The notes beneath the pieces are model-generated. The model was not told the origin of the DNA. It ran no database searches and saw only the letters and a list, made by a program, of their open reading frames with translations. This document shows, piece after piece, positions 4,742 through 50,768 of a stretch of 64,000 nucleotides of DNA. Source of the DNA: a virus; the IMG/VR virus record IMGVR_UViG_3300046171_000208, positions 1 through 64,000 of that record; one strand, 5' to 3'. Both the position numbers and the translations under genes were made by a program. Within the stretch, counting starts at the first letter, position 1. Every line of letters begins with the position of its first letter.

Positions 4742-4802
4742 AATGAGTGAGGGTTTCCTCACCATTAGAAAGGACTCGAAACAATCGTAACCCTGACTAC
4801 CA

Positions 4803-4923
4803 ACTGCTCCCAACCAAGACCTACGTAGGCAGTATAATACTTCGTCTTTCTATCCAGTAGTGAGGGATTACTGGAAATAAATATCGCAACTTCCCTGTTG
4901 CCCTATTTACAAACGTCTTACTA
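4803..4923 (+). ncRNA. Structured psbA 5' leader, PhotoRC-II-like cis-regulatory RNA
   Basis: Hairpins CCAGTAG-tgaggga-TTACTGG (4854-4874) and GCAAC-ttccct-GTTGC (4886-4901) with complementary loops (AGGGA/TCCCT). ACTGC/GCAGT and AAGAC/GTCTT pairings lie upstream. Directly 5' of psbA. Confidence 0.7.
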
Positions 4924-50045: not shown

Positions 50046-50075
50046 ATGGCGGGAAAAAATCCCGCCATTTTTTTT
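50046..50075 (+). terminator. Rho-independent terminator
   Basis: ATGGCGGGA-aaaaa-TCCCGCCAT followed by a T tract. Confidence 0.85.
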
Positions 50076-50161: not shown

Positions 50162-50177
50162 TGTATCGTAAATTACA
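50162..50177. promoter_or_regulatory. NtcA-binding-site consensus
   Basis: TGTA-TCGTAAAT-TACA = GTA-N8-TAC with flanking T/A. Confidence 0.65.
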
Positions 50178-50184
50178 AAACTAC

Positions 50185-50213
50185 TTGCATATATAGAGTG
50201 AATGTGTTACTAT
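50185..50213 (+). promoter_or_regulatory. Sigma70-type promoter; predicted TSS ~50220, at the start of the aptamer
   Basis: TTGCAT 50185-50190, 17 nt, TG-T-TACTAT 50205-50213. Confidence 0.65.
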
Positions 50214-50221
50214 TAACACAA

Positions 50222-50452
50222 CGTTCATCTTATGGGCATCCTATTATCAGCTTTAACTCTTATTGCTAGTCACGAACCAGTCCATTGGACTATTAAGTGT
50301 GATAGGTGGATGGAACTCGCTTATGAAATCAAACAAGATCCATATCTTGATGATGCAAGTAAGTTGGGTTTAATCAACCATTTCAAGTATAAAGTAGAAG
50401 AAGCTTGTAATGTCGGGGAGACATAAGACGCAAGTAAGCCGACTCGGAACGG
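50222..50452 (+). ncRNA. Glutamine-riboswitch-like aptamer 1, with an ORF inserted in its P2 loop
   Basis: CGTTCA + stem TCTTATG(50228-34)/CATAAGA(50422-28) + CGCAAG...GACTCGGAACGG; same core as aptamer 2. Confidence 0.6.
50232..50426 (+). CDS. 64-aa hypothetical protein with hydrophobic N-terminus, nested in aptamer 1
   Basis: ORF track; its ATG and TAA lie in the two strands of the 7-bp stem. Confidence 0.7.
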   Translation: MGILLSALTLIASHEPVHWTIKCDRWMELAYEIKQDPYLDDASKLGLINHFKYKVEEACNVGET

Positions 50453-50455
50453 GTT

Positions 50456-50523
50456 CGTTCATCTCCTACGGGAGACGCACAAGTTGACTGAAGGAACGGA
50501 TATTAAAAACATCCAATTACTTT
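50456..50523 (+). ncRNA. Glutamine-riboswitch-like aptamer 2 (Downstream-peptide/glnA class)
   Basis: CGTTCA-TCTCC-tacg-GGAGA-CGCA...GACTGAAGGAACGG, directly upstream of AGGAG and a YRG peptide. Confidence 0.75.
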
Positions 50524-50535
50524 AGGAGAAAACCA

Positions 50536-50643
50536 ATGGCAAAAGTCACTTATCGTGGTGTTGTTTACGACACCAACAGAAACAAAGCTCAGCAAACAAA
50601 AGAGGTCGAACTCACATATCGTGGCATTGCTCACGCTAAGTAA
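50536..50643 (+). CDS. DUF4278-like small protein (35 aa)
   Basis: MAKVTYRGVVYDTNRNKAQQTKEVELTYRGIAHAK*; two TYRG motifs; AGGAG SD. Confidence 0.85.
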   Translation: MAKVTYRGVVYDTNRNKAQQTKEVELTYRGIAHAK

Positions 50644-50735
50644 TGTTAGTTACTGCAGAAATTTTAGCAGCATCTGCTATATTTCTAACTATCATTTACG
50701 CTGAAGCTAGATTCTTGTATGGATACAAGTTCTAA
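50643..50735 (+). CDS. Small membrane peptide (30 aa)
   Basis: MLVTAEILAASAIFLTIIYAEARFLYGYKF*; TAATG coupling. Confidence 0.7.
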   Translation: MLVTAEILAASAIFLTIIYAEARFLYGYKF

Positions 50736-50740
50736 ATTAT

Positions 50741-50768
50741 AAGGAGGGGTTGTTACCCTCCTTTTTTT
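50741..50768 (+). terminator. Rho-independent terminator closing the riboswitch operon
   Basis: AAGGAGGG-gttgtta-CCCTCCTT followed by a T tract. Confidence 0.85.

Follow-up and report, generated by a model that had tools for sequence, protein, structure and literature searches.

Open reading frames nested in the hairpins of predicted glutamine aptamers of cyanomyoviruses

A glutamine-aptamer core that appears to be split by a 64-codon gene is supported by the viral DNA analyzed here. Among the matches listed, an intact nested ORF of 49–69 codons lies within aptamer 1, aptamer 2 or both in 80 of the 99 related loci with full flanks, which makes the nested ORF the majority state of cyanomyovirus glutamine-riboswitch arrays. 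The earlier description, made from the letters alone (hereafter the sequence-only reading), had treated the layout as that of a single locus, and this view has to be widened. The window, by which we mean the whole stretch of DNA analyzed, is 64,000 nucleotides long (positions 1 to 64,000 of the IMG/VR record IMGVR_UViG_3300046171_000208), and the array and its operon are on the plus strand.

Results

Anatomy of the tandem array

In the window, aptamer 1 (copy 1) consists of two halves. The 5′ half (50222..50234) begins with CGTTCA (50222–50227), in which the P1/PK strand CGTTC is followed by A, and continues with TCTTATG (50228–50234), which holds the ATG at 50232–50234. The 3′ half (50422..50452) comprises CATAAGA (50422–50428), which holds a TAA stop at 50424–50426, and the core CGCAAGTAAGCCGACTCGGAACGG (50429–50452), of the form CGCA...GGAACGG. 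The two halves of the core are ~200 nt apart and are joined by a perfect 7-bp helix, 50228–50234/50422–50428. The nested gene of 64 amino acids (50232..50426) is present in the ORF list and matches the phrog_6471 family profile; it starts and stops inside the two strands of this helix and has no Shine-Dalgarno (SD) sequence. A linker (50453..50455; GGTT if counted from the end of GGAACG) separates copy 1 from aptamer 2 (copy 2, 50456..50499), a compact glutamine aptamer recovered by both an RF01739 match and a pattern match, which reads CGTTCA, TCTCC-tacg-GGAGA and CGCA...GGAACGG. The tandem cores, the stem and the position of the ORF had been located exactly to the base in the sequence-only reading, and the nested 64-codon ORF without an SD is also as it had described.

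The core had been likened to a glutamine riboswitch. This is borne out by copy 2, which matches RF01739 above the gathering score (35.5 bits, gathering score 35) and scores 30.3 bits with RF01704, below the gathering score of 33. It is also borne out by the two halves of copy 1, in which the P1/PK helix CGUUC:GAACG and the junction nucleotides (CA, CGCA and GGAACGG) are complete (50222–50227 and 50429–50452). Copy 1 has no Rfam match even at E ≤ 10, as expected because of its 187-nt insert. Similarly, Rfam gives no Glutamine match anywhere in L002 and L004, two related loci with ORFs in both aptamers, and the prediction that covariance models would miss such a split design holds in these cases. 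The ORF-less ortholog of copy 1 in P-TIM68, a natural proxy for the loop-deleted copy 1 of the sequence-only reading, reaches 28.8 bits with RF01704 (E = 1×10−5), below the gathering score of 33, so that the compact aptamer-1 type is itself a borderline family member by score. One compact aptamer with the same 3′ core as copy 1 (locus L037) passes the Rfam threshold for RF01739 (35.1 bits). The chance expectation of the compact-aptamer pattern in the window is zero, and the 3′ core is found at two places only in the 101.7-kb record, with none in the reversed control. On these sequence matches, the interpretation of copy 1 as a glutamine-aptamer core split by a protein-coding gene is supported, and ligand binding is predicted.

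Recurrence in related cyanophage loci

Related loci were gathered from viral contigs with a 17-mer of the copy-1 3′ core, which retrieved at least 120 loci; since these are related metagenomic contigs and the probe was taken from copy 1, the counts and P values given here overstate independence. Among the matches listed, the 99 loci with full flanks are of the array types cO (40), OO (25), cc (18), Oc (14, the type of the window), c (1) and cOc (1), where c denotes a compact and O an ORF-bearing aptamer, and nested ORFs are commoner in aptamer 2 than in aptamer 1. A YRG peptide ORF is found 3′ of the array in 98 of these 99 loci.

Loop length in aptamer 1 is bimodal among the matches listed: 72 loops are compact (0–18 nt) and 50 are large (176–212 nt plus one of 484 nt). 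An intact ORF of 60–69 amino acids is present in 49 of the 50 large loops. Its ATG lies 4–7 nt 3′ of CGTTCA. The ORF ends within the 3′ stem strand in some loci, the window among them, and at the TAA of the core CGCAAGTAAG in the others. In aptamer 2, all 80 large loops among the matches listed carry an intact ORF of 49–67 amino acids. In 75 of the 80, the stop is a TGA or TAA just before AGGAACGG, so that a shared D-A-K-A-D tail is read from the aptamer core. This tail, D-A-K/Q/N-A/V-D-stop, corresponds to the translated core GA-CGCAAAAGCCGAC-TGA in L004 (L004:641-817) and 75 other loci among the matches listed, and the stop triplet of the aptamer-2 ORFs is also carried by compact aptamers. 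The recurrence of intact ORFs, which start 3–7 nt 3′ of GTTCA, in 49 of 50 and 80 of 80 large loops among the matches listed rules out chance.

Both ORF-bearing and ORF-less versions can be found in named phages. In a distant blastn search of a phage collection, P-TIM68 spans the same query with 195 fewer bases; it has the same upstream block and both cores, and its aptamer 1 is the hairpin TCCTT-aaca-AAGGA, with no ORF. In the marine virus AG-341-P01 and in phage P-HM2, each of the two aptamers has an ORF in its hairpin; in AG-345-E15, only aptamer 1 does. In a close relative from a marine metatranscriptome, the whole ORF is replaced by the 12-nt GCCCAACAGGGC, which forms a compact hairpin, and the flanks are joined from 50227 to 50429. 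The 484-nt aptamer-1 loop belongs to L017 (IMGVR_UViG_3300031774_002111), which has TGTTCA in place of CGTTCA, lacks an ORF at the usual position, and may be a decayed or rearranged copy.

Coding status of the nested ORFs

The ORF family of the window evolves as protein-coding sequence. After the codons overlapping the stem and the core were trimmed, the median dN/dS is 0.19, with no value of 1 or more among the 566 pairs; column entropy is highest at codon position 3, followed by position 1 and then position 2. The aptamer-2 ORFs, which are more diverse, have a dN/dS of 0.50 with saturated dS. Among the matches listed, the frame is intact in 129 of the 130 large loops of the two aptamers. The protein of the window matches phrog_6471 (E = 6.7×10−15, residues 3–60 on profile positions 4–62 of 66), and the aptamer-2 protein of P-HM2 matches phrog_504; Pfam contains no family for either protein. 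Nine residues (H14, H18, W19, C23, W26, E32, L47, K54 and C59) are invariant among 38 homologs. AlphaFold2 predicts three helices for the nested protein of the window, with a pLDDT of 79.5 overall and above 90 at residues 21–50. No fold match was found in the PDB at E ≤ 0.001, and the ESM Atlas returned viral hypothetical clusters only. On the evidence of selection, frame and homology, the nested ORFs are real genes.

A protein homology search with the nested protein returned 16 metagenomic relatives. No cellular homologs were found, and the two matches to genomic contigs are both phage-like. The first is on a contig of a Prochlorococcus single-cell assembly, which is exactly as long (189,106 bp) as the viral contig L047. 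The second is on L125 (PAQA01000006.1), a 16.6-kb contig that encodes a relative of the nested protein. This contig was assigned to a Rhodospirillaceae MAG, but probably is cyanophage DNA placed in the wrong bin. In a profile comparison, the proteins of aptamer 1 and aptamer 2 align from Cys to Cys (probability 81%, E = 1×10−5), which suggests a distant relationship between them; such a relationship would fit duplication of a unit made of an aptamer plus its gene.

Conservation and folding of the split aptamer

The split aptamer looks to be maintained. Among the matches listed, CGTTCA, which lies outside the search pattern, is kept in 49 of the 50 ORF-bearing loci, in register with the closing helix ~200 nt away. 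Also among the matches listed, copy 1 and the commonest compact aptamers have identical 3′ cores, and 3′ core variants largely coincide between ORF-bearing and compact aptamers. P1 and the junction nucleotides are invariant across 38 ORF-bearing homologs, so that P1, which never varies, gives no covariation evidence. The closing helix does vary: its positions 1–3 pair in all unique ORF-bearing copies among the matches listed, and its positions 3–5 show exchanges among C-G, U-A, A-U and G-C pairs. The energy of the closing-helix duplex is −8.0 kcal/mol versus −5.2 kcal/mol with a shuffled 3′ strand. The stem is both conserved and co-varying in homologs, a check that the sequence-only reading had proposed. 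The closing helix was not recovered by RNAalifold on the MAFFT alignment. Besides P1, RNAalifold finds in the 38 homologs only a small co-varying hairpin, located over the His-Trp codons, and two minor stems. We also considered a conserved rod-like fold of the ORF interior, which was rejected because RNAalifold on the 38 homologs shows no conserved long-range structure inside the ORF.

The leader of the window has a minimum free energy of −84.3 kcal/mol with the 7-bp helix closed (z = −2.5 versus shuffles). We further investigated the contribution of the interior by replacing each ORF interior with random stretches of the same locus. The closing helix forms with a probability of 0.64 with the real interiors versus 0.23 with the controls in aptamer 1 (P = 4×10−5), 0.68 versus 0.19 in aptamer 2 (P = 4×10−6), and 0.82 versus 0.23 in the window. 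Mononucleotide shuffles give the same picture as the genomic-interior controls, and the ORF interiors are 9–11 kcal/mol stabler than the controls. Since the real interiors favor closure, the coding sequences seem to be shaped for aptamer closure. In these models, pairing of the AUG with the 3′ strand has a probability of 0.76 in aptamer 1, 0.52 in aptamer 2 and 0.99 in the window. Openness of the start region falls from 0.55 to 0.26 once the 3′ strand has been added; in the window, the opening in the nascent RNA is small (0.42 versus 0.36). In the crystal structure of glutamine-II, a regular helix with a tetraloop cap forms the stem-loop and stacks on the PK helix, which contains the ligand and all the highly conserved nucleotides (PMC6698751). 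The data on helix closure fit this structure.

The surrounding operon

The gene upstream of the array has its own terminator at 50046–50068. A candidate NtcA-type box, GTA-N8-TAC, can be read at 50163..50176, upstream of the array. It lies ~45 nt upstream of aptamer 1 and is kept in P-TIM68, L002 and L003. Among the matches listed, an NtcA-type motif is found at most 90 nt 5′ of the first aptamer in 78 of the 99 loci. Positional conservation of the sequence block in P-TIM68, L002 and L003 points to a weak candidate promoter, TTGCAT-N17-TACTAT (50185..50213), which agrees with the consensus at 7 of 12 positions. A loose −35/−10 pattern fits 70 of the 99 loci among the matches listed, and a promoter scan of the window did not call the TTGCAT/TACTAT pair. 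If this pair is the promoter, the center of the NtcA-type box would be near −51, which is neither the activating position of −41.5 nor an overlapping repressing position. One RNA contig starts at 50182, upstream of the predicted transcription start site (TSS), which the sequence-only reading had placed ~12 nt 5′ of the nested ORF; Logan contig ends sit at conserved repeat borders and so are uninformative on the TSS. Contigs identical to the nested ORF are found in RNA libraries of several marine studies, which is weak evidence and indicates presence rather than transcription.

Downstream of the array, the SD sequence TAGGAGA (50523..50529) precedes by 7 nt the ATG (50536) of a DUF4278 "downstream peptide" gene (50536..50643). 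This gene encodes an IF17-like peptide of 35 amino acids with two YRG motifs, which matches PF14105 (30.6 bits, cut-off 25.3) and phrog_5049. Its stop is overlapped (TAATG) by the ATG of a 30-amino-acid hydrophobic ORF (50643..50735), which has no family match in PHROG or Pfam and has a homolog at the same place in P-HM2. An intrinsic terminator called by the terminator scan (50741..50763) ends the operon. Two other RNA families were seen in these genomes. A PhotoRC-II RNA (RF01717) is at 4788–4888 of the window (58.1 bits, gathering score 39). A manA RNA (RF01745, ~163 bits) lies directly 3′ of the operon terminator in L002 (L002:1075-1274) and L003 (L003:971-1172); the window has no manA RNA match.

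The linker between the two aptamers is 3–5 nt long in all 117 tandem loci among the matches listed. With so short a linker, the GAACG of aptamer 1 can pair with the CGUUC of aptamer 2, which excludes both P1 helices. The resulting GAACG-loop-CGUUC hairpin has an energy of −2.5 to −4.8 kcal/mol in the window (50446–50460) and in the 117 loci among the matches listed, and on these models the two sensors may be coupled through it. Constrained folding (n = 31) gives the DUF4278 SD an accessibility of 0.56 when aptamer 2 is enforced and 0.55 when the inter-aptamer hairpin is, against 0.54 in the unconstrained fold; these secondary-structure models ignore ligand and tertiary contacts. In the gifB model, folding of the aptamer releases a paired ribosome-binding site and so turns translation on (PMC6212724). 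These folding models give no support for a simple SD-sequestering platform at the DUF4278 gene and, with SD accessibility unchanged, leave the output on the downstream gene unexplained. Pairing of TCTCCTA (50462–50468) with TAGGAGA (50523–50529) over 7 nt was considered and rejected, since the local UNCG-capped hairpin competes with it and no ensemble signal is seen.

Discussion

Taken together, we favor the following explanation, which we hold to be somewhat probable as a whole. The array would belong to a short cyanomyovirus operon of an NtcA-type box, a tandem glutamine riboswitch, the DUF4278 gene, a hydrophobic peptide gene and a terminator. The variable stem-loop of aptamer 1 (P2 of glutamine-I, P1 of glutamine-II) would have been extended around the 64-codon gene; as this stem-loop points away from the ligand pocket, the aptamer could still close, with the 7-bp helix bringing CGUUCA to CGCA...GGAACGG. 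With the AUG and the UAA of the nested gene in opposite strands of the helix, 5′ and 3′ respectively, ribosome occupancy of this gene would exclude the folded aptamer and vice versa. The sequence-only reading had proposed such exclusivity between folding and translation, and it follows from the geometry. While the ~190 nt of the ORF are being transcribed, the AUG would be free and usable. After synthesis of the 3′ strand, and when ribosomes have left the ORF, closure of the helix and of P1 would follow, and we infer that glutamine would stabilize the closed state, in which the nested gene is off and the array acts on the DUF4278 gene. The nested gene would be translated in the post-transcription window and whenever glutamine is low. 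The structural part of this interpretation is supported; the proposed regulatory part is plausible.

A stronger version is a two-way translational switch, in which the fold buries the AUG of its own nested gene, the array activates DUF4278, and ribosomes on the nested gene reset the sensor or hold it open. We put this forward tentatively, as a possibility that falls somewhat short of an even chance. If it is true, low host glutamine would lead to small Cys-X36-Cys proteins and high host glutamine to the IF17-like peptide, which may inhibit glutamine synthetase.

The nested genes could instead be passengers, an explanation that we consider unlikely. The loop would then be an insertion-tolerant site at which small genes borrow the operon promoter in a tight phage genome, and the aptamer would serve the DUF4278 gene only. 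The start and stop codons would lie in the stem only because nothing else fits, and the conserved aptamer halves may serve as homology arms for cassette swaps between phages. This reading would be in line with the coexistence of cc, cO, Oc and OO arrays among related phages, the near-identical flanks of ORF-less and ORF-bearing versions, and the several diverged families of nested proteins, for which no cellular homologs were found and the two genomic-contig matches are phage-like; the stem-loop is also structurally peripheral (PMC6698751). It would not account for the closure-friendly ORF interiors relative to same-locus controls, which suggest selection at the RNA level as well as on the protein. 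A degree of coupling is also difficult to escape, since the AUG pairs with the 3′ strand in most loci, and the layout is both old, as dS is saturated, and the majority state among the matches listed.

It is improbable, in our estimation, that gene insertion inactivated copy 1 and left copy 2 alone to sense glutamine, the 5′ half being kept as leader or for initiation of the nested gene, and the 3′ half because it is coding or serves aptamer 2 as a partner. Copy 1 does lack an Rfam match, the 3–5 nt linker does permit its GAACG to pair with the CGUUC of aptamer 2, and in many relatives the 3′ core is also coding (a GRK-stop or DAKAD-stop tail). In the window, however, the ORF stops 5 nt 5′ of the core, which is non-coding there, and coding cannot explain the conservation of 50429–50452. 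Moreover, CGTTCA and a co-varying closing helix are kept over ~200 nt in 49 of 50 loci among the matches listed, the same cores occur in compact aptamers of which at least one passes the Rfam threshold (L037), and an unselected relic would not have stayed intact over the divergence seen among the ORF families. That the 187-nt insert is merely a structured RNA hairpin extension with an accidental ORF, as the missing SD and the extra stability of the leader (z = −2.5) and of the interiors (9–11 kcal/mol) might suggest, is scarcely credible against the dN/dS of 0.19 with variability concentrated at third positions, the frame intact in 129 of 130 large loops among the matches listed, the invariant His, Trp and Cys columns, the confident AlphaFold2 core and PHROG matches, and the lack of conserved interior structure beyond one small hairpin in RNAalifold.

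The aptamers share the core CGUUCA, hairpin, CG(C/G)A and GGAACG with glutamine-I (RF01739), glutamine-II (RF01704) and the leader of Synechocystis gifB (IF17) (PMC6212724; PMC2864571; PMC6698751). They also resemble the known glutamine riboswitches in their tandem arrangement, their link to a DUF4278/YRG peptide gene and a nearby NtcA-type box. The described glutamine riboswitches have a short capped stem-loop, whereas here the hairpin encloses a whole gene with its start and stop in the helix or core, and the Rfam models miss the ORF-bearing copies. Like the tandem glnA RNAs, the arrays place two aptamers of the same class in series before one gene (PMC2864571); they differ in the fixed 3–5 nt linker between mutually complementary P1 strands and in the coding insert carried by one or both aptamers.

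Some likenesses extend beyond riboswitches, and each is partial. Group I and group II introns carry ORFs in peripheral loops, and leader-peptide attenuation is known from ermC and trp. The arrays share with the introns a gene placed in a peripheral loop where a functional RNA tolerates it structurally, without a splicing or homing function, and with the attenuators a fold that is decided by the position of a ribosome on a short ORF. Unlike in ermC and trp, the competing fold here would be an aptamer for a metabolite, in place of a terminator or anti-SD hairpin, and the ORF encodes a conserved folded protein rather than a disposable leader peptide. A structured regulatory RNA and a small-protein mRNA are combined in one transcript in RNAIII/hld of S. 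aureus and SgrS/SgrT of E. coli. The arrays share this double role, which is also that of yfr6, but the ORFs of RNAIII/hld and SgrS/SgrT are not known to lie inside a ligand-binding aptamer helix. In yfr6, which was first called non-coding and later recognized as a Downstream-peptide leader plus ORF (PMC2864571), the ORF is downstream of the aptamer.

No description of an ORF inside a glutamine aptamer was found in the literature searched, including PMC6212724, PMC9004378, PMC5473149, PMC6698751, PMC12379486 and PMC9964418. The original motif paper noted tandem glnA RNAs and short downstream ORFs (PMC2864571), and its text and supplements do not mention ORFs inside the hairpin. Klähn et al. 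showed that glutamine riboswitches activate gifB, the homolog of the DUF4278 gene, in Synechocystis and did not mention phages (PMC6212724). According to a riboswitch census, cyanophage genomes contain only two glutamine aptamers, and phages seldom rely on riboswitches (PMC5473149); one 17-mer, by contrast, recovered at least 120 viral contigs with such arrays here. If our interpretation is true, riboswitch use by phages is badly undercounted, because the commonest phage form among the matches listed is invisible to covariance models.

In existing descriptions, riboswitch aptamers are compact, non-coding domains that precede the genes under their control. With a gene inside the aptamer's own helix, the same nucleotides would be claimed by both ligand sensing and translation. 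Such a regulatory architecture would be new, and through it a single RNA sensor could control two genes oppositely. The system is small, abundant in the ocean and present in cultured phages such as P-HM2; these phages, together with P-TIM68, which naturally lacks the ORF and can serve as a control, make a direct test of the hypothesis feasible. The hypothesis touches on how cyanophages may read the nitrogen status of their hosts.
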